A DNA stretch of 64,000 nucleotides, from the IMG/VR virus record IMGVR_UViG_3300023213_000167, positions 762 through 64,761 of that record, one strand, 5' to 3'. Shown piece by piece: positions 6,715 to 52,618 of this stretch. Both the position numbers and the translations under genes were made by a program. Each line of letters opens with the position of its first letter. Within the stretch, counting starts at the first letter, position 1. This stretch comes from a virus. The notes below the pieces were generated by a model. The model did no database searches. It was not told the origin of the DNA and was given only the letters and a program-made list of their open reading frames with translations.

Positions 6715-8427
6715 ATGCCCCTTAGAGAAGATCAGTACGCGCCAAACGGGCGGTGGTTTATGCCCGCCATCAGTTTTTCCACTGATGATAAGTACACCAT
6801 CACCCGTGATATTAATGACCGCATTGTATTCGTCGGTAATTTTAATACTAACCCTGTTGAGGTCATGGTATGGGATCCCGCGACTAATTTTGTGACTTTT
6901 GGCGGGCCAGTAGGGTTGCCTGTGTACATAAAAGCCTCCTTGCCTGCTTCTGCGACTGATGGCGCATTGGCGCGCGTCAGCGATGATATACGTGGAATTT
7001 GGGCCTTCTCGGCCGCAAAAGCGGGCTGGGTTTCGGTTACTGGAGTCGCAAACGTTCAAGACTTTGGCGCCGTGGGCGATGGGGCGACGGACGACTCCAC
7101 GGCGATCCAGAACGCGATCAACGCGGCCCCAACTGGTGGGACTGTTTATCTTCCGGCTGCCACTTATGCCGTTGCGACCGGACTGACGATTAACGGATCA
7201 CAAGGCGTCGCCAAACTAGCCGGTTCGGGCTCGGGCGCGGACGGCTCGACAACGATCAAGTTCACCGGCACAGGCGCAGCCCTCACGATCGGCAGTGCGG
7301 CCAATCCGGTCAATGGATTTCTCGTCGAAAATCTTCAGGTTAACGTCCCTTCGGGACAGACCGGGGTCAGGATTTTCCGCAGTTTGCGCGTTCATGTCCG
7401 TGACGTGCGCGTGCAACTGGCTGGGAGCGGCACTGCCTTTGAATTGGACGGCAACGGAGTCCAAAACTACTTCAACTACCTTGAGCATATCGAAGTCACG
7501 AACACGACCCAAGCCCATCCCTACCTCGGCAAGGGCGTGTGGATTCACAATGAGGGCAACTCCAACGCTCTCATCAGCGGTGTCATTCAGTGGGTCGACA
7601 CCGGCATCCAGATCGAAAAAGGAACCGGGACCGCCGCGTCGCAAAATCTCGTCCAAGCAACAGAAATACAGCACTTCGAGACATTCGGGATCAACCTGCC
7701 CGCTTCGGCCACCGGGACGGGGAACATCTTTATCAACAACGCGATTGAGAACGTCGGCGGCCTTGGGACGGGAATCAACATCGCTGATACAACCGCGCCA
7801 GCAACATTCCTCCTTGGGAATAGCTATAGCGGGCTCGCGACCAATCTCAACGATCTGTCGGATAATACGGCATTTCGACAGACGATGCAGTTTGATATTG
7901 ATCGCCAGCGATTCGCGAACATGATCTTCGAGTATCAAGCGGCGACCGGATCACGGATTCGTGGGCAGCGCTGGTCTAGAGCCGCCCCTTCCGATCAGCA
8001 AACCGACGTCATTGGTAATCCCCTCAGGCTGTTTCACGCGGCTAATACCACAACGCCGGGCCTTCAGACGAACATCGACGGGAGCAACAACCCCTTTATC
8101 ATCGCATCCCACGGACTCAACATCGTAACCTACAGCGCCTCCATGACACCCAATGCCACGCCGGGGCGCACGCAACGGATCAGCGCGACCGATGGGAACG
8201 CTTTCACGATCAACAACCCGACGAATAGCCAAGTCGGTGACATTCTCATCGTGATGATCCGCAACACGTCCGGCGGAGCGCTCGGAGCGGCAACGTTCGC
8301 AGCAGGCTACAAACTCGGCGCCGCGTGGGTGCAGCCAGCCAACGGGTTTAGCCGGAGTATCCAGTTCCTCAACGATGGCACTAATTGGGTCGAGGTCAGC
8401 CGAGCGGCGGCGGACGTGGCGAACTAA
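6715..8427 (+). CDS. Tailspike / depolymerase with pectin-lyase-like beta-helix
   Basis: NVQDFGAVGDGATDDSTAIQNAINAA...GGTVYLPAATY cap motif followed by N/G-rich beta-helix repeats. Confidence 0.85.
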   Translation: MPLREDQYAPNGRWFMPAISFSTDDKYTITRDINDRIVFVGNFNTNPVEVMVWDPATNFVTFGGPVGLPVYIKASLPASATDGALARVSDDIRGIWAFSAAKAGWVSVTGVANVQDFGAVGDGATDDSTAIQNAINAAPTGGTVYLPAATYAVATGLTINGSQGVAKLAGSGSGADGSTTIKFTGTGAALTIGSAANPVNGFLVENLQVNVPSGQTGVRIFRSLRVHVRDVRVQLAGSGTAFELDGNGVQNYFNYLEHIEVTNTTQAHPYLGKGVWIHNEGNSNALISGVIQWVDTGIQIEKGTGTAASQNLVQATEIQHFETFGINLPASATGTGNIFINNAIENVGGLGTGINIADTTAPATFLLGNSYSGLATNLNDLSDNTAFRQTMQFDIDRQRFANMIFEYQAATGSRIRGQRWSRAAPSDQQTDVIGNPLRLFHAANTTTPGLQTNIDGSNNPFIIASHGLNIVTYSASMTPNATPGRTQRISATDGNAFTINNPTNSQVGDILIVMIRNTSGGALGAATFAAGYKLGAAWVQPANGFSRSIQFLNDGTNWVEVSRAAADVAN

Positions 8428-39673: not shown

Positions 39674-40089
39674 ACTGACGCGCTGCGTCAAAGATGGACA
39701 ACACGAAAAGGGCATACCACGGCCCCACACCGAGGCCATGGTACACCCCACCACGTCATACAACAACACGATACAACAACAACATGGCAAGCTGGCCCCA
39801 CCCTACTGCCAGTGCCAGCCCGGCGCCTACAAACGCACGTGCGCCCCCGCACGCGCAAGCACCGTGCTATCCCACGCCCACGCCGCCCTTAGACGGCGAC
39901 GTCCAGAAGGTCAGCGGCCCGGATTAACCACTCGATCAGCGGCCCGGGCTTACCGTGCGCCACCCACGAAAGGTAACGCTCATACAACTCGTCGTCCCGT
40001 ACATGCGCCACATCGGCGCCGTATCTCCAGCGAAGGCTAGGAACGACGTCCTGCCGATCACCGAGCGGCAACGTACTCACCTCATTCCC

Positions 40090-40340
40090 GCGCGGATACA
40101 CACCCTACTTACACCCCCAACCGAAACAAAGGCGGTTTGGGCGCGTGGCCCGACTTTAACGGGCCGCATCTCTAAGGTACCAAGTATGGCGAAGGTGTAT
40201 CCGCGCTAACGGTGGTACCGTATGTGGTGGCACGCGCGTCCAACCGAAGGGTCCGCACGGCCCGACTTAAACGGGCAGCAAGGCCAAACAGGGGTGCGGG
40301 TCTTCAGACCCACTATTGTTTGCGCTGTGGCGTGCGGTTA
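40090..40340 (-). ncRNA. Candidate structured RNA with twin repeated hairpins
   Basis: 12-bp stem 40090-40101/40195-40206; duplicated hairpin GGCCCG-ACTTWAA-CGGGC at 40147 and 40259, each preceded by CAACCGAA. Confidence 0.45.
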
Positions 40341-40343
40341 GTC

Positions 40344-40359
40344 GTCAACCCGGGTTGAC
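40344..40359. repeat. Palindrome copy 7, GTCAAC-CCGG-GTTGAC
   Basis: Outer edge of the trailer of the 40422 gene. Confidence 0.9.
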
Positions 40360-40367
40360 ACGCAAAC

Positions 40368-40401
40368 GGTTCATGCACTCTTGAGACGGTACGGCCCCGC
40401 G
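40368..40401. repeat. Left arm of imperfect 34-bp inverted repeat (partner 41552-41586)
   Basis: ggttcatgcactcttgagacggtacggccccgcg versus reverse complement of the partner, ggttcgtgctctcttgaggcggtgcggccctcgcg. Confidence 0.85.
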
Positions 40402-40421
40402 CGTGAGCCGCGCCGGGACGA

Positions 40422-41483
40422 CTAGCTCGTTTTCTCCGTTTTGGGCGTGGGCACCAGCTTCATGCACAGCGCCGCGAGCCGCTCCGCCTGAGCCTGCGTC
40501 AAGCTGATACCCTTTTTGGGGGCATTCTTGAGTAGGCCGTCCATGCTGCCCATGAAGGCGAACTTGTTGGCGAAGATGCTCATTTTGTTGCTTTCGTGAC
40601 GATGGGTGGTCGGATTCCACTTCAGCGCCACGATCGACAAGGCTTCCGCCCGTGCCTCGGCGGAGCTGCGTAGCTTGTCGTTGTGCTCCTGGTTCTGCGG
40701 ATCGTCGGCGTTTTCGACTACCGGCTTGACGGCGTTGCGCCACGCGACATGCGTGGTACTCAGCCAGACACCGGCTTGCAGCATGGCAATCGGATCGCCA
40801 TACGCGGCGCCACCGACGAGGACAAATCCCTTCTCCACCCACGTGCGGGTGACTTCGGGAAGGGTGAGACGCTGCGCGTCTGTCAGCTGATCGTTGAGGG
40901 CCGGGAAGTACACGCCTTCCTTCGCGACGCTAGTCCATGCCTGCTTGTGCAGGATGCAACTGGCGATGCGCGCAAGCTGGATGTACCGATTGACCCGCTG
41001 CCGGTACCCGCTGCTGACCAGCGGCTTGGGCTCTTTCGGGGCACGCTTCGATGACGCCACGTACAACTCTTGGGTCTCGGGGTTGGTACCAGCCACGTAC
41101 CGAGTCCCTTCGATTTGGGGGTTGACGTTTTGGTCGATTGTGCCGTAGAACAGAGCGGCCAGCCGTTTCGCCAGAGTGGCGGCGCCTTCCTTGTAGATTG
41201 CGAAGAACTCCGCCAGATCAGCCACGATGGGGGCGGCCAAGTTCTGAGCGTGCGACGTGTCGCTTACGCGGTCAGCCGCGATGTTCTTACCGAGCCGCTG
41301 CTCGATGAGCGCAAGGGCGGATGCCTGCTCTTCGATACGTTTGGCCTGCTCGTCGATGGCCGGAGCCTGTACGTGTGGCCCGGGCGACGTGTCAACCACC
41401 GGCGCCGCGGTCGGCGTCTGCGGTGGCGCAACATCGTCCACGACGACACTGCCGGGCGTGTTAGACTCTTGGGTGGTATTAAT
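40422..41483 (-). CDS. Orphan early protein (339-353 aa) flanked by complementary leader and trailer
   Basis: Largest ORF of the early region; track start GTG 41441 has no RBS, while an in-frame ATT at 41483 follows GAGGT by 5 nt. Confidence 0.7.
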   Translation of the reverse strand: MNTTQESNTPGSVVVDDVAPPQTPTAAPVVDTSPGPHVQAPAIDEQAKRIEEQASALALIEQRLGKNIAADRVSDTSHAQNLAAPIVADLAEFFAIYKEGAATLAKRLAALFYGTIDQNVNPQIEGTRYVAGTNPETQELYVASSKRAPKEPKPLVSSGYRQRVNRYIQLARIASCILHKQAWTSVAKEGVYFPALNDQLTDAQRLTLPEVTRTWVEKGFVLVGGAAYGDPIAMLQAGVWLSTTHVAWRNAVKPVVENADDPQNQEHNDKLRSSAEARAEALSIVALKWNPTTHRHESNKMSIFANKFAFMGSMDGLLKNAPKKGISLTQAQAERLAALCMKLVPTPKTEKTS

Positions 41484-41551
41484 GGCGTACCTCGCGTTTC
41501 GGGTGAGATGTTACCCCGTGCGCGCCAGCCGCGTATGCTGCCGGCTGGTGC

Positions 41552-41586
41552 CGCGAGGGCCGCACCGCCTCAAGAGAGCACGAACC
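41552..41586. repeat. Right arm of imperfect inverted repeat (partner 40368-40401)
   Basis: 30 of 34 positions identical plus a 1-nt bulge. Confidence 0.85.
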
Positions 41587-41635
41587 GCTTACGTTTGTAC
41601 GGGGTTTCACCCGAACGAACCCACCACGTTTTCGT

Positions 41636-41651
41636 GTCAACCCGGGTTGAC
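41636..41651. repeat. Palindrome copy 8, GTCAAC-CCGG-GTTGAC
   Basis: Outer edge of the leader of the 40422 gene. Confidence 0.9.
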
Positions 41652-42442
41652 GTCTTCCCAACGCCACGTGAGGGTGACAGGGATACCGTCCACATGGATT
41701 GTGTGTAGCGCGTACTTACCGGCAGGTACTGCGCGCTGCTGTGTGCTGACGGTGGGACTGTGCGACTGACACATGTGAGGCAGCGGTCTCATGTGTAACC
41801 GCCGCCGCTCCGCGTGCTCGCCGCCGCAGTTACAAGGCCAGTCGTGATACCAGACCGAGCCGGGAAGGAATACTAGGTCACTCATCGCGGCATACCACAC
41901 AGCCGGGACACGGCTGATGGGCGAACCGCGTGCGCGCGAGCACGAGGGCCGCGGTAAGACGTCCGGGGTATGCGCGCGACAGAATGTCGTCGCGTAACTG
42001 GCCGGCCGTCCTACCGATTCCTAGGCGCCGCGCGCGGGTAACGATGTTCCTTACCGGAATGCCGTTACCGCGCCGCGTCTGCATTGTCGGGAATATCCGC
42101 ACGGGCGAAACCCCTTTCCGGGCCCGCCCGGGCGAAACCCCGGACAAACGCTGCCAACGGGGAATAGCCCGTTGGACTACGCACCTATGTGCTCAGTGTC
42201 ACCGGATGCGCGCTGAGTCCAGGGCCGGGATTCTGACGGTAGCGTGGGACTGTGCCGGGGTCGTTAGTCCCCGCGGCCCACGCCGCGTCTGTCGCCGTAG
42301 CCCCCACGCGCGCGGTACTTTGTCCTACCACGCGCGCGGCGCATCCGACGTACTACCGTGCTTTGCATCATTGCTCTGGCGTGCGCTGCGGGTTTGTCCC
42401 GTGACATTTTGTGTCACCGTCCGCCCGCCTGCCTCACCGGGT

Positions 42443-42458: not shown

Positions 42459-42580
42459 AGGACTGCCGCGCCGAGCCTACCGTCCGTTTGTTACATAAAT
42501 GCTCTGGCGGCCAAACACCCCAACGCCTGTGTACTAAACATGTGTTGAGTAGTATGCCCGCGTGTCACATTGGCACAACT

Positions 42581-42596
42581 GTCAACCTGGGTTGAC
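42581..42596. repeat. Palindrome copy 10, GTCAAC-CTGG-GTTGAC
   Basis: Inside the control region. Confidence 0.9.
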
Positions 42597-42990
42597 ACAT
42601 GGGCGTGTCAATCTGTCCCATACCCTTCGGGCCCACATGGGTTGACTAGGCCCACACGTGTTGACTAAACATGTGTTTAGGGGTCCTCCGACGTTCGAGA
42701 GCCGCGGCCGCGCGCGCATGCCTGAAAATCGAGTATGTGACCCAGAAAGGGACCCCCGAATATTTTAAATTTTAGGTACCTTTGCAGGTCATGCCTTTTC
42801 TCCTGATTTATTAAGCATTTACAATACACTGTTTTGCTTAATAAATTCGCGGGGTTGCAGGCCGACACTCGTTTTATGTCGGCGGACACCCCCCTTGTCA
42901 AGTTTATTTTATTTTGTGGCATTTTGCTTACAGCCATTGAGTTTACAGCGCACTTTTGGGGCACTTTTCAGGGTCTTCTTGAAAAAGGTG

Positions 42991-46900: not shown

Positions 46901-48124
46901 ATGCGGGGGGACCGCGTGCTGGACCAGCCTTGGTTTGGCAGCAGTCGTCCCTACCAGGATCCCTTGGACTTCCTGATACGGGCCTATCACGCGGCTAGCA
47001 GCGTCCCCCCAGGCATGAAGGAAGGCGTCATGCAAGGCGATCCTAAGGTCATGGCTATGATGGAGGCAGCATCGCCTGGGCTGACGCGCTTCATACAACG
47101 TATTCCTGGCATATTCAATTTTTCTACATACAAGAATTCATTAGAGGCGGGGGCTACACAACTGCGCAAATTTGTGGACAGGGCTCCTCTTAACAGAAAT
47201 GTTGACATTAGGGTTAGCACCACCGGCCCAGGTAGGCTGAAGGGGCTTCCTCAGGACGTAGAGGACCTCATCACAATGGCGCATGAGGGATTACACGGCG
47301 CCTATTATCAGAAGCCCAATGCCACAGGATATCCTCCCGAGAAACATATTTCAGATATGTATAACCATTTTGTGGAAAGGTTTCCTCACCTGAAGGCTTT
47401 CGCGAAATGGAATGAGATGCATGGATTTCCGGAAGCACAGGCGCAAGCAGAAGCCATTGTTGAAGGCATGGCCCACAGCACCGTGAAGGGGACATTAGGT
47501 AGGTCCCCAGTTGCGGGGCCCTTTCCGTATGATACATCCTGGGATCCATCAATTATTGACCGGATGTCCGAGATGAAAATGCCACGCCCAGGTTCTCCGC
47601 TATTCCGCATGAATCCGCCAAACGACCCCTACGAGAACTTTAAGACGCTGGCCGGCGCCAAGCGCAGCGCGGAAGGCGGACATTTTAACCCGGCCACTGC
47701 TAAACAGGTGATGATGGATCCGCACTCAAGTGAGCCATACCCGGGCGTGGCGGGTAGTGACCGGACCCCAATAAGGACCTGGCAGGCTCCGGTCTCTGAT
47801 TTGCAGGCGCAGATCGTAACGGGGCGACAGCCCTTTAAATTCCCTGTAGAACTGGGGGGAGGTAGGCATCCTGATCATTGGGATCGGTACCAGGGACAAA
47901 TACTGGGCACTAATTTAGGTCCTCCCGATTATGCGAGTCCTATGTATAGTGCCATGTCACCAATGGCAGGTCCTAGTGTAAATTGGCCGTGGGCCACGGG
48001 CCGTGAAATCATCAAAGACTTCCTATGGGGCGCGAGCCCCTCGGGCGCGCTGCGACCACCCTCTGCCGGGAGATCCGGCATCCACGGTGTGATAGATTTT
48101 GGACCCTCTACCCCCCAGCCCTAA
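46901..48124 (+). CDS. Hypothetical protein with HExxH zincin-like motif
   Basis: LITMAHEGLHG followed by AEAIVE. Confidence 0.5.
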   Translation: MRGDRVLDQPWFGSSRPYQDPLDFLIRAYHAASSVPPGMKEGVMQGDPKVMAMMEAASPGLTRFIQRIPGIFNFSTYKNSLEAGATQLRKFVDRAPLNRNVDIRVSTTGPGRLKGLPQDVEDLITMAHEGLHGAYYQKPNATGYPPEKHISDMYNHFVERFPHLKAFAKWNEMHGFPEAQAQAEAIVEGMAHSTVKGTLGRSPVAGPFPYDTSWDPSIIDRMSEMKMPRPGSPLFRMNPPNDPYENFKTLAGAKRSAEGGHFNPATAKQVMMDPHSSEPYPGVAGSDRTPIRTWQAPVSDLQAQIVTGRQPFKFPVELGGGRHPDHWDRYQGQILGTNLGPPDYASPMYSAMSPMAGPSVNWPWATGREIIKDFLWGASPSGALRPPSAGRSGIHGVIDFGPSTPQP

Positions 48125-49706
48125 CGTACCGGACGTTCCCACCCAGGAACAGCTTGGCAGCCTCATGTCTGCCTTGAAATGGGTAGGCACGCCCCATCAG
48201 CTGCCTGAGTTTGCGGACCCGGGCCGCGGGGCCTTTTGGATGGGCACGCCTCCCGGCACACCTGGGAAGGAGCCGCATCCCGGCCTACTTGAGTTCAGCC
48301 CCCTTCTGGGCATGATGCCTGGTGCGTCCTCGGCAGGCGCGGCGGGGGAGGCAGCGCCCCGCATCCCACGCCGTGTGCAGCTCACGAATCTTGCCAACCA
48401 AGCCAAGGGGGGCGACGAATCCGCGTTTAACCAACTGTTTAACATGCTGAGCGGGACCGCGCAACGGTTGGCGACACGTTATACCGGCGGTGAGAAGTAT
48501 ACGGGGCGTATGTTAGCTCCCGAAGGGCGCACTGGGGAAATTGTCCCCGAGGTTAATCAGCCATCCGCTTATCACGATGCTCTCAGTGCCGCCAATGAAC
48601 GTATATGGTCAGCACTACAGTCCTTTGACCCCACCAAGGGTGCATTCGGGCCGCATTACTTCCACCAGGCCCGCCAAGGAGCGCGCCGGGCGGCGACTAC
48701 CGCCACAGACATCGCCCCAGTCAGTGAAGACGTCAAGGTGTTAATGCGCCGGATCGAGGCGTGGCAGGACAAGATGGAGGCAGGTACGGCATTGAAACAA
48801 GGGTATCCGTATCGGCCTTCGTTGGATCTCGCCTTTAAACACCTTAAAATTCATCCGGTAGACGCCCAAATGGTCCGGGATGCTTACGCATCTCCTGGTC
48901 ACACCGGCGCCGGCGTGATCCGTCTAGACCAGCCAATTGATACGCGTGGTAGTACATCTGCGCAAGCCCCATTGGAGGAAATAGTAAGCCGTGACGCGCC
49001 AGGTACTCACCGAACAGAAGCTGCAGAGTCGGCCGAAGCGCGCACTCCTGGTATGACAGCTGGGCCTGAACAGGAGCGCCGTCTCAGCAGCGCGCATTCC
49101 GCGCTTCGTCAGGCGCAGCGCGAGTTCCAACGCGACAACGAACGGGATTGGGACATATATAACCGCTGGTTCAACGGTGAAACCATGCGCCAAATTGGGG
49201 ACGTGCATGGTGTAGGCAAGTCGCAGATACAGCGTATCATAGAGAAGACCGAAGCTACCTTGGCCAAACGGGCCCGAGAGCTCGCGGGGGAGACCGATCC
49301 ACGCACGCCCCGCCAGCAGGCGGGCGCCTCCCGCCCACGTGCCGCCGCGCAGCAGCAGGCCTGGGAGACACCAGAGACCGGAGAGATCCCGCCCGGGTTG
49401 CCCCGCCTTAGCGGCGGCAGTGATAGACCTGAATCCTCTGGTAGCTTCCGTGGGCCCCTGTCCCCGGGACAGCGCCACGATTTAGAACAGGCTAATCGTG
49501 TTGGCTCGAAAATTGGAGGGGGTTCGCAGCCATACAATGCGGCGGAAATCGCCCCACAATTGCAACCACAACGATTTCCAGGCGCGGTGTTTTCTCGTGA
49601 TTTGAATATACGTTACCCCTACAACGAGAAAGTTGCTAAACCTTTTAACGACCCGCGAGGTTTTTGGCTGTTCCTGAAATCACTAATGGGGAATTATGGC
49701 ATTTGA
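48099..49706 (+). CDS. Sigma-70-family factor (regions 2, 3, 4) with long N- and C-terminal extensions
   Basis: AKGGDESAFNQL (2.1), IWSALQSFDPTKGAF (2.3), RPSLDLAFKHLKI...IRLDQPI (3) and GETMRQIGDVHGVGKSQIQRII (4.2 HTH). Confidence 0.8.
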   Translation: MDPLPPSPNVPDVPTQEQLGSLMSALKWVGTPHQLPEFADPGRGAFWMGTPPGTPGKEPHPGLLEFSPLLGMMPGASSAGAAGEAAPRIPRRVQLTNLANQAKGGDESAFNQLFNMLSGTAQRLATRYTGGEKYTGRMLAPEGRTGEIVPEVNQPSAYHDALSAANERIWSALQSFDPTKGAFGPHYFHQARQGARRAATTATDIAPVSEDVKVLMRRIEAWQDKMEAGTALKQGYPYRPSLDLAFKHLKIHPVDAQMVRDAYASPGHTGAGVIRLDQPIDTRGSTSAQAPLEEIVSRDAPGTHRTEAAESAEARTPGMTAGPEQERRLSSAHSALRQAQREFQRDNERDWDIYNRWFNGETMRQIGDVHGVGKSQIQRIIEKTEATLAKRARELAGETDPRTPRQQAGASRPRAAAQQQAWETPETGEIPPGLPRLSGGSDRPESSGSFRGPLSPGQRHDLEQANRVGSKIGGGSQPYNAAEIAPQLQPQRFPGAVFSRDLNIRYPYNEKVAKPFNDPRGFWLFLKSLMGNYGI

Positions 49707-50932: not shown

Positions 50933-52618
50933 ATGACCCGCTCGGAGCGGTATCGGCGGTTCATGGAGCAACTCCGGATCCGTACGGAGGAGGGCACCAT
51001 CGCCCCGTTGAAGTTCACCGAGTCCCAGGAAATCCTTTGGGATGAGGTAGCCCCCGATCTTGATACCGGGGAGCGGCTGTGGTACATCGTCCTCAAGGGA
51101 CGTCAGGTCTACGCAACCACATTCTTTGAAGCATTGGGCTTTACCCGAACCCTCGAAAAGCCCAACACCAACAGCCTTGTCATTGCGCAAGACCTTGACA
51201 GCGCGGTTGAGATCTTTGACATGGTCAAGAGATTCTACGATTTCCTTGCCATGCCGAAGCTTGAGGCGGCCCGTGTACGCGAAGTTATCCTCCCCATCCC
51301 GGGAGGAAACAGCAACTTCAAGGTTGTGTCCGCGGGAACGGCCGCAAAGGGCCGGGGCACGACCAAATCTGTGCTGCACTGCAGCGAGGTGGCCTTCTGG
51401 GAACACCCCGAGGTGCTGCTAGGCCTCAGCCAAGCGTTGCCTGACCTACCGAACACAATGTGGGTCCTTGAGTCAACCGCCAACGGTATGATCGGCCACG
51501 GTGAGATGTTCTATAGACAGTGGAAGGACGCCCAAAGCGGCCTTAGCAAAATGAAACCTATATTCATCCCCTGGTACGTCATGAACAAGTACCGGGAGGA
51601 TCCGGGGGTGCCGGAGGAAGAATGGGACGAGGAAGAAAAGATGTTGATGGAGAGCTGCAACCATCTTGGCCTGGACGAGAGGAGTCTGAGATGGAGGCGG
51701 AACATTATCGTGACGAAGTGTCAAGGCTTCGTCGAGAAGTTCCATCAAGAGTACCCTTCAACCCCATCCGAGGCCTTCATCAGTACCGGCTTACCCGCTT
51801 TCGACCCACTAGCAATCCTGTACCAGGAGAAGTATCTTTGCCGTCCCCGCGTACGGGGGACCTTCGGCTCCCGGGGACAGTTCCTCCCACGTTCTGATGG
51901 AGAGGTATTCATATGGAAATCCCCGCAAGAGGGGCACGACTATGCGATTGGTGTGGACACCGCGGAGGGCTTGAAGGGCGGGGACTTTGCGTGTGCCCAG
52001 GTCATCGACATGAACGATCTGGAACAGGTAGCTTTGATACATGGCCTCATCCAGCCTTTCGAATTCAGCCGGATCCTGAATCACCTGGGGCGCCTATACA
52101 AGGGTGCCATGCTAAATATTGAGATCGCCAGCGCCGGTATCGCCGTGCAAGACTACATGCTGCGCGTGTGGAATTACCCCCGGTACCATCCGTGGCGCGG
52201 GAAGCCCGACCGGGCAGCGCCCACGCAAATGCGCCTATTTGGGTGGAGTACCAATGTCCACAGCCGGCCGCTACTTATCGAGAGTGGCAGGCGCGCCATA
52301 AACAACCGCCTCATCACGTTGCACGACCGTAGTACCGTCGACGAAATCACGCATTTCTCCCGCCAAGACGACGGGAAATACGCCGCTACTGCTGGCCACG
52401 ATGACCGCGTCATGGCCCTGCTTCTCGCGCTACGGAGCCGCGAGGAGAACTTCACGCCCATCAGCCGCCTCGTCATAAGTTCAGGGGCCGTCACGGACCT
52501 GGACGTACGCGGGGTGCGGACGGTGGACGTGTTGGAAGCCGAGCGCGTCGGCCTCCGCCGAGTCCATCAGGACATTAAGAAAAAGGCCCGAGAGGCCGTT
52601 AAACACTTTTGGATGTAG
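50933..52618 (+). CDS. terL: Terminase large subunit
   Basis: LKGRQVYATT (Walker A region), LHCSEVAFW (Walker B), LESTANG, IGVDTAEG and HDDRVMA. Confidence 0.95.
   Translation: MTRSERYRRFMEQLRIRTEEGTIAPLKFTESQEILWDEVAPDLDTGERLWYIVLKGRQVYATTFFEALGFTRTLEKPNTNSLVIAQDLDSAVEIFDMVKRFYDFLAMPKLEAARVREVILPIPGGNSNFKVVSAGTAAKGRGTTKSVLHCSEVAFWEHPEVLLGLSQALPDLPNTMWVLESTANGMIGHGEMFYRQWKDAQSGLSKMKPIFIPWYVMNKYREDPGVPEEEWDEEEKMLMESCNHLGLDERSLRWRRNIIVTKCQGFVEKFHQEYPSTPSEAFISTGLPAFDPLAILYQEKYLCRPRVRGTFGSRGQFLPRSDGEVFIWKSPQEGHDYAIGVDTAEGLKGGDFACAQVIDMNDLEQVALIHGLIQPFEFSRILNHLGRLYKGAMLNIEIASAGIAVQDYMLRVWNYPRYHPWRGKPDRAAPTQMRLFGWSTNVHSRPLLIESGRRAINNRLITLHDRSTVDEITHFSRQDDGKYAATAGHDDRVMALLLALRSREENFTPISRLVISSGAVTDLDVRGVRTVDVLEAERVGLRRVHQDIKKKAREAVKHFWM

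Follow-up and report, generated by a model that had tools for sequence, protein, structure and literature searches.

Predicted long-range helices in the sense transcript enclose early cistrons of related uncultivated tailed phages and may serve as rRNA-like processing brackets

Introduction

In phage T7, the RNase III sites of the early messenger RNA (mRNA) are local hairpins between genes. A different geometry is found in type I toxin mRNAs of the hok type, in which a message of ~400 nucleotides (nt) encoding a small toxin is closed by pairing of its extreme ends, an antisense RNA is part of the system and the pairing controls the activation of translation. Here we analyse a DNA stretch of 64,000 nt (the window), corresponding to positions 762-64761 of the 66,321-base-pair (bp) IMG/VR virus record IMGVR_UViG_3300023213_000167, whose completeness is estimated at 75%. 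Near the start of its early operon, a gene for a protein of 339 amino acids (aa) is enclosed by a predicted 39-bp helix of the sense transcript, and we compare this locus with bacterial and phage systems in which distant RNA segments pair or are processed.

Leader-trailer helices flank ribosomal RNAs (rRNAs) and are cut by RNase III (PMC10250234, PMC6582327). Long-range intramolecular duplexes in mRNAs are also documented targets of this enzyme (PMC11780869, PMC6212723), for which the idealised Escherichia coli substrate is 22 bp (PMC3867540). In the T7 early mRNA precursor, RNase III cuts at five sites (PMC3867540). Pairing between the 5' untranslated region (UTR) and the 3' UTR of one message has been described for icaR of Staphylococcus aureus (PMC3868564) and hbs of Bacillus subtilis (PMC5737220), and long-range RNase III duplexes are known from B. 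subtilis mRNAs (PMC11780869).

The helices reported below resemble those of rRNA operons in that the flanks are complementary over ~30 bp across 0.2-1.2 kb, that the helices lie in tandem along a single polycistronic transcript and that covariation maintains them. They also exceed the RNase III substrate minimum, every one of them being longer than the 22-bp reference. They differ in that a protein-coding cistron is enclosed, ribosome-binding site included, and in that neighbouring helices abut, with arms overlapping by 4-5 nt and no boxA/boxB/boxC-type signal found beside them. What the locus shares with T7 is an early phage operon, read by the polymerase of the host, with double-stranded RNA (dsRNA) signals between cistrons that would separate and stabilise the messages (PMC3867540); here, in contrast, the helix arms flank a cistron and enclose all of it. 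As in icaR, hbs and the B. subtilis duplexes, where such pairing is tied to RNase action, the ends of the mRNA pair intramolecularly over hundreds of nucleotides. However, the 3' UTR of icaR pairs with the Shine-Dalgarno region and represses translation, whereas in the phage unit the loop contains the ribosome-binding site, at a distance of 10-115 nt from the helix; the phage helices are also much longer than icaR-type pairings, and tandem. With hok the locus shares a full-length mRNA closed by end pairing; the small toxin, the antisense RNA and the control of translation activation are not seen in the phage unit, whose homologous open reading frames (ORFs) encode 310-349 aa. A hok-type fold-back was considered and rejected, as the start codon and ribosome-binding site lie in the loop, inside the helix, and are not sequestered.

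Results

A long-range helix encloses the 339-aa gene

Each strand of the window was scanned for gapless antiparallel helices with a span of ≤2.5 kb, scoring Watson-Crick pairs +2, G-U pairs +1 and mismatches -4. The top two long-range helices of the whole 64 kb, on either strand, are neighbours on the minus strand and are designated d and c; the next-best helix in which the palindromes described below are not involved scored 41. Helix d and the unit it encloses comprise the following features.

41556-41594, minus strand: 5' arm of helix d, on the leader side of the 339-aa gene; gapless pairing with 40398-40360
40360-40398, minus strand: 3' arm of helix d, in the trailer, starting 23 nt past the stop codon; pairs with 41594-41556
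40422-41441, minus strand: the 339-aa early gene enclosed by helix d; coding-like GC content at the three codon positions (GC1/2/3 = 0.63/0.45/0.78)
41442-41555, minus strand: putative structured leader of 114 nt inside helix d, from sequence reading and folds; no canonical Shine-Dalgarno sequence before the GTG start

On the sense (minus) strand, the 39 gapless positions of helix d comprise 32 Watson-Crick pairs, 6 G-U pairs and 1 U-U, giving a score of 66, and beyond a 1-nt bulge the pairing continues inward as CGCG/CGCG. On the antisense (plus) strand, the same arms contain no G-U pair and 6 mismatches, and score 40. The original prediction, made from the sequence of this region, had described an inverted repeat here, with a leader and trailer complementary over 34 bp, mismatches that become G-U pairs on the sense strand and an inward continuation of the pairing. 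The scan bears out all three points, with the difference that the helix is longer than claimed.

Dinucleotide shuffling of the 13.3-kb early region (60 replicates) gave top-scoring long-range helices with a mean score of 33.6 and a maximum of 39, against observed scores of 66 (helix d) and 53 (helix c). The local alignment score of one flank against the other was above those of all 1000 shuffles. This alignment and the gapless scan replaced RNAduplex with 130-nt flanks, which was uninformative because its null was inflated by long internal loops and the flanks did not include the arms. Helix d, with 38 of its 39 pairs, is part of the minimum-free-energy (MFE) folds of 1.3-kb and 1.9-kb sense transcripts, the transcript folds being reported as MFE structures only. 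Cofolding of the two flanks, a check proposed together with the prediction, also favoured the sense strand (gain of 51.6 kcal/mol, versus 42.7 on the antisense strand). No Rfam family was matched in the 39-43.5 kb region.

A second helix abuts the first

Helix c had been overlooked in the original prediction; its 3' arm is the 41-nt 'insertion' between the palindrome at 41636 and the 34-bp arm described there.

42119-42151, minus strand: 5' arm of helix c; pairs with 41623-41591
41591-41623, minus strand: 3' arm of helix c; 4-nt overlap with the 5' arm of helix d, so that the helices are tandem and abutting
41878-42147 and 41637-41900, minus strand: two putative small ORFs with an ATGA overlap, the content of unit c, from the ORF list and sequence reading

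The sense strand of helix c has 33 bp (25 Watson-Crick, 7 G-U and 1 mismatch; score 53), while on the antisense strand only 22 bp are found, with a score of 32. The helix encloses 495 nt. Neither of the small ORFs within it has a family match, and the second stops at the TGA of the palindrome.

Related phages carry helices of their own sequence around the homologous gene

Homologs of the 339-aa protein were identified with HMMER in an exhaustive search of 1.84 billion protein representatives, which returned P0002 (30% identity) and P0004 (24%), both of similar length. A further match, P0003 (1445 aa), was partial, consisted of short repeated stretches and was set aside. P0002 and P0004 are encoded on phage contigs (L006 and L007), where the homolog is in both cases among the leading genes of an operon that runs divergently from the packaging block. 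In a blind test, extra relatives were fetched via an unrelated marker protein encoded 4-8 kb away and scanned without reference to the gene. One of them, L010, carries two tandem helices that meet at one base, and the third homolog, of 349 aa, is encoded there (L010:5105-6154). The detectable homologs thus number three, with identities of 24-30%, all in syntenic early operons of related metagenomic phages. No further homologs were found by protein-profile searches of IMG/VR, metagenome contigs and genome contigs. A word-indexed search of 5.8 billion proteins returned known members only, a neighbour-protein search returned the window's own protein only and a profile of the four sequences, being too diverged, could not seed a genome scan.

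All three relatives have a bracket helix around the homolog, each with its own sequence, and the tandem, abutting layout recurs in L006 and L010.

L006, 5920-5949/7011-7040: around the homolog; 30 bp, 3 G-U
L006, 5477-5513/5888-5924: upstream helix around a 74-aa gene; 37 bp, 8 G-U; 5-nt overlap of its 3' arm with the 5' arm that follows
L007, 2802-2829/3795-3822: around the homolog; 28 bp, 3 G-U, 1 A-C
L010, 6217-6180/5071-5034: around the homolog; 38 bp, 7 G-U, score 69
L010, 6463-6432/6248-6217: upstream helix around a 51-aa ORF; 32 bp, 3 G-U, score 61

Across the four phages, the bracket helices are thus 28-39 bp long. Their arms lie outside both the coding sequence and the ribosome-binding site: between the end of the 5' arm and the start codon there are 10-115 nt, and between the stop codon and the beginning of the 3' arm 11-33 nt. 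The outer 8-9 nt of the 5' arm of helix d (GGTTCGTGC) are conserved in L006 and L010. Synteny of the unit is conserved among the window phage (W), L006 and L010, which argues for its vertical inheritance.

Pairing is very probably selected in the sense transcript

Pooling the seven helices gave 196 Watson-Crick pairs, 37 G-U pairs, 1 A-C and 3 other mismatches. As extension of a helix assisted by G-U pairs could bias this count, we also counted only interior positions, within Watson-Crick runs. There, 28 G-U pairs were found versus 1 A-C (binomial p = 1.1e-7). In every helix, the antisense score was below the sense score.

We then compared the four gene-bracketing helices, anchored at their conserved outer end (GGTTCGTG, or CCTTAGAA in L007). 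Changes on both sides that keep the pair were present in 21 of 28 columns, and 110 of the 112 cells were paired. RNAalifold on the full units recovered the closing 8 bp, with compensatory pairs. Selection very probably acts on pairing in the sense transcript, because G-U pairs outnumber A-C mismatches 37:1, compensatory changes are present and the arms are placed just outside the coding regions. The original prediction had favoured selection for single-stranded pairing over a DNA inversion site and had named covariation in homologs as a test. The excess of G-U pairs, the compensatory columns and the finding of a separate bracket helix at each homologous locus all speak in its favour.

The enclosed protein

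The 339-aa protein had been called an orphan, which is nearly right: profile searches of Pfam, PHROGs, NCBIfam and the PDB gave no match, but the three distant homologs exist. AlphaFold2 models had a predicted local distance difference test (pLDDT) score of 42 with three sequences, and a pLDDT of 57 and a predicted template-modelling (pTM) score of 0.49 with four. Foldseek, which had been suggested as a way to place the protein, found no match to the model of pLDDT 57 in the PDB or BFVD, nor did an atlas shape search. The ESM Atlas feature search gave a lead to AIPR only, rejected as its value of 0.76 is below the useful range.

The putative start of the ORF is a GTG without a Shine-Dalgarno sequence, unlike its neighbours and homologs (AAGGAG, AGGAG, AGAGG). 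A possible alternative start is an in-frame ATT 14 codons upstream of the GTG, 5 nt after GAGGT, in the leader region 41442-41500. The gene is compositionally distinct from its neighbours. In the 2-kb bin 40001-42000, the GC and AT skews have the sign opposite to that of the neighbouring minus-strand early genes, although the gene strand is the same.

The palindromes are a separate early-region element

Both 16-bp palindromes in which the enclosed unit had been said to finish are present, but the view that they are its ends is not supported, as they are two of ten copies of a separate element.

41636-41651, both strands: palindrome GTCAACCCGGGTTGAC, 3'-terminal in unit c, 1 of 10 copies
40344-40359, both strands: palindrome copy directly 3' of helix d, 1 of 10 copies

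The element, GTCAAC-N4-GTTGAC, occurs ten times between 26436 and 42596, in the early region (0.3 expected), and is not specific to the 339-aa gene because of these ten copies. Most of them lie 10-40 nt upstream of a minus-strand Shine-Dalgarno sequence and start codon, and extend as GTTGAC-AC on the minus strand. The copy at 40344 is the only one of the ten oriented opposite to the others, with a 9-nt extension, ACG-AAACG, on the plus strand. As its extension is on the opposite strand, this copy and its flanks can pair with the 41636 copy over 26 bp, without G-U pairs and symmetrically on the two strands. Such pairing of two palindrome copies as RNA, outer to the unit in W, is also possible in L010 (5039-5018/4464-4443, 22 bp).

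In one frame, the palindrome reads V-N-P-G-stop on either strand (41637-41651, 40345-40359 and other copies), so several ORFs, real or spurious, end inside it. One IMG/VR contig, L005, which is unrelated, also contains the extended W palindrome. The related phages each carry a repeated intergenic palindrome of their own, and the half-sites are related: beside GTCAAC-N4-GTTGAC in W, these are the GGTACAACGGTTGTAC family in L006 (4794-7293) and GTAAAC-N3-5-GTTTAC in L010 (5018-7125). In W, in L006 (near 7054-7069) and in L010 (5033-5018) alike, the large bracket helix has a copy directly beyond its 3' arm. The half-sites are invariant within a phage and different between phages, which suggests a co-evolving DNA-binding regulator.

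The phage and its early region

Genes in the window include those for a family A DNA polymerase with a fused UDG domain, a P22/SU10-like portal protein, a glutamine amidotransferase and a phiEco32-type ligase. The large terminase (50933-52618) is ≤29% identical to that of any isolated phage, the 29% match being Roseobacter phage CRP-7, and 52-63% identical to its counterparts in L008, L010 and L012. Because of this gene set and terminase, we assign the sequence to an uncultivated tailed phage. A megablast search for close DNA relatives among phage records gave no match. A 535-aa ORF at 48099-49706 had provisionally been taken as the terminase gene, which is 50933-52618 instead. Its product has no Pfam match and a weak similarity to a 559-aa L006 protein, and as a query against IMG/VR it found nothing.

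Small minus-strand genes fill ~26-43 kb. This early operon is read leftward and diverges from the rightward structural block; the bracketed 339-aa gene is located close to its start. A consensus scan found no minus-strand sigma-70 promoter upstream; TTGACA-17-CATAAA near 42905-42870 was spotted by eye and is not relied on. Operator- or promoter-like repeats, ACTCAACA-N-ATGT and TAGTCAACA, were found at 42520-42700 in the window, at 2386-2587 in L007 and at 6960-7010 in L010, in the divergent control region of all these phages. They confirm the kinship of the phages and point to a common early regulatory system. Downstream of the bracketed gene, the 670-nt stretch between the palindromes at 40344 and 39658 holds little convincing coding sequence and has no Rfam match; within it lie both copies (40142-40168 and 40254-40280) of a 27-nt hairpin-shaped repeat, GGCCCGACTTWAACGGGC.

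Discussion

Conserved long-range helices of the sense mRNA, tandem and abutting, each appear to wrap one cistron unit in the early operon of these phages. On balance, we think it likely that they work as rRNA-like leader-trailer helices, that is, as brackets for RNase III processing and stabilisation. The early transcript would then be laid out like a small rRNA operon, with each unit wrapped from ribosome-binding site to stop codon. The 30-40 bp duplex would form once the 3' arm is transcribed, and its cleavage by host RNase III would set each cistron free from the polycistronic early mRNA. The resulting message would keep its 5' and 3' ends base-paired and would thereby be shielded from exonucleases and from 5'-end-dependent RNase E. 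Where arms abut, two helices could stack into a ~70-bp rod, from the middle of which the RNA on the upstream and downstream sides would exit. No RNase III gene was found in the record (66 kb, 75% complete), and processing would therefore depend on the host enzyme. From the geometry (28-39 bp, tandem, abutting), we infer a fit to units excised by RNase III.

Several points weigh against this proposal. No boxA match was found near any arm at the four loci, using E. coli, Bacillus, generic and lambda consensus sequences, which may not be those of the host; the full analogy to an rRNA operon, with antitermination as well as processing, thus finds no support here. Helix c is missing from the global MFE fold of the two-unit transcript, in which pairing between the palindromes competes with it. 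The feature is carried by four phages only, and the more distant relatives L012 and L013, which do not have the gene, show no such helix. Finally, the helices could act uncut.

This last point leads to the main rival of RNase III processing, in which each helix is an uncut RNA clamp that closes its cistron into a loop. Such a clamp could block 3' exonucleases and scanning by RNase E, insulate the folding and translation of adjacent cistrons, or be the target of a dsRNA-binding protein of the phage or the host. It accounts equally for the signs of selection at the RNA level and for the position of the arms, immediately beyond the ribosome-binding site on one side and the stop codon on the other. 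The same ~70-bp rod could arise from stacking of tandem abutting arms, and RNase III can also serve as a non-catalytic dsRNA binder (PMC3867540). However, near-perfect duplexes of 30-39 bp are expected substrates of RNase III in almost any bacterium, and the sequence holds no protective feature such as large internal loops. We regard a non-cleaved clamp as rather unlikely, if worth keeping in mind.

Returning to the helices as processing brackets, the same arms could at first sight be taken for the terminal repeats of a mobile DNA cassette, resembling an insertion sequence (IS) or a miniature inverted-repeat transposable element, or otherwise swappable, with the 339-aa protein as a possible transposase. 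The anatomy is IS-like, with a 1.2-kb unit, inverted ends of 28-39 bp and one ORF of ~340 aa without a known family. Moreover, at the equivalent position upstream of the homologs, the small genes within the units are not homologous to one another, and the 40-42 kb segment has a skew opposite to that of its neighbours. Against this, a target-site duplication is absent at all four loci, where the bases flanking the arms are not direct repeats, and the arms are single-copy in the window. The position is syntenic in four phages with only 24-30% protein identity, and the arm sequences differ between these phages and therefore cannot be shared recombination sites. The 37:1 excess of G-U over A-C, with its strand asymmetry, is unexpected for double-stranded DNA sites. 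No transposase family was matched, no recombinase was found in the record (75% complete), and searches of 185,579 species genomes, IMG/VR and the 1.84 billion protein representatives turned up no relatives outside these phages. The suggestion of a new mobile cassette, raised in the original prediction, is thus very improbable.

A circularised mRNA, proposed alongside it, fares no better. Paired ends could direct excision and ligation into a circular or otherwise covalently closed message, the juxtaposition of 5' and 3' ends being the geometry of pre-rRNA circularisation in archaea. No RtcB or RNA-ligase domain was found in the record (75% complete), the continuous helices show no evident motif of the bulge-helix-bulge type and no feature of the sequence calls for circles; we consider this outcome highly improbable.

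Crossover sites of a Gin/Hin-type invertible segment, which would flip the gene relative to an outside promoter, are barely credible. Inverted repeats of ~34 bp do flank a 1.2-kb segment, and among the palindrome copies the one at 40344 alone has the inverse orientation. However, no serine or tyrosine recombinase (PF00239, PF00589) was found in the 66-kb record (75% complete), strand-specific G-U changes and compensatory evolution would be meaningless for a double-stranded DNA site, and the orientation of the gene relative to the operon is identical in the four phages. Strand-asymmetric mutation of recently duplicated inverted repeats can hardly explain the G-U excess as a by-product: both kinds of sense-compatible change (C-to-T and A-to-G) are of the deamination type favoured on the non-transcribed, non-template strand, but the known asymmetry is few-fold rather than 37:1, could not maintain 28-39 bp of complementarity in different sequences with 21 of 28 columns compensatory at 24-30% protein identity, and leaves the placement of the arms exactly outside the coding regions unexplained.

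In the mRNAs of bacteria and phages, long-range RNA structure is difficult to establish and has seldom been backed by comparison. In the present phages, the comparative signal alone points to whole protein-coding cistrons enclosed by helices of 30-40 bp, arranged like rRNA processing stems. The result also removes a tempting misreading of such inverted repeats as mobile or invertible DNA, and tandem, sense-specific bracket helices provide a search pattern for such units elsewhere. Tentatively, tandem abutting leader-trailer helices that package early cistrons as closed loops could be a general and so far undescribed design of the first operon in tailed phages, and this lineage would show that the design can do without a boxA antitermination signal. 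If so, the helices would be its functional core, acting through RNase III-dependent excision, end protection or control over when the first messages appear. Should host RNase III cut them, the helices would make early gene expression in uncultivated phages accessible to testing, and the phages would be reusing the cell's own logic of rRNA maturation to release and stabilise their first messages.

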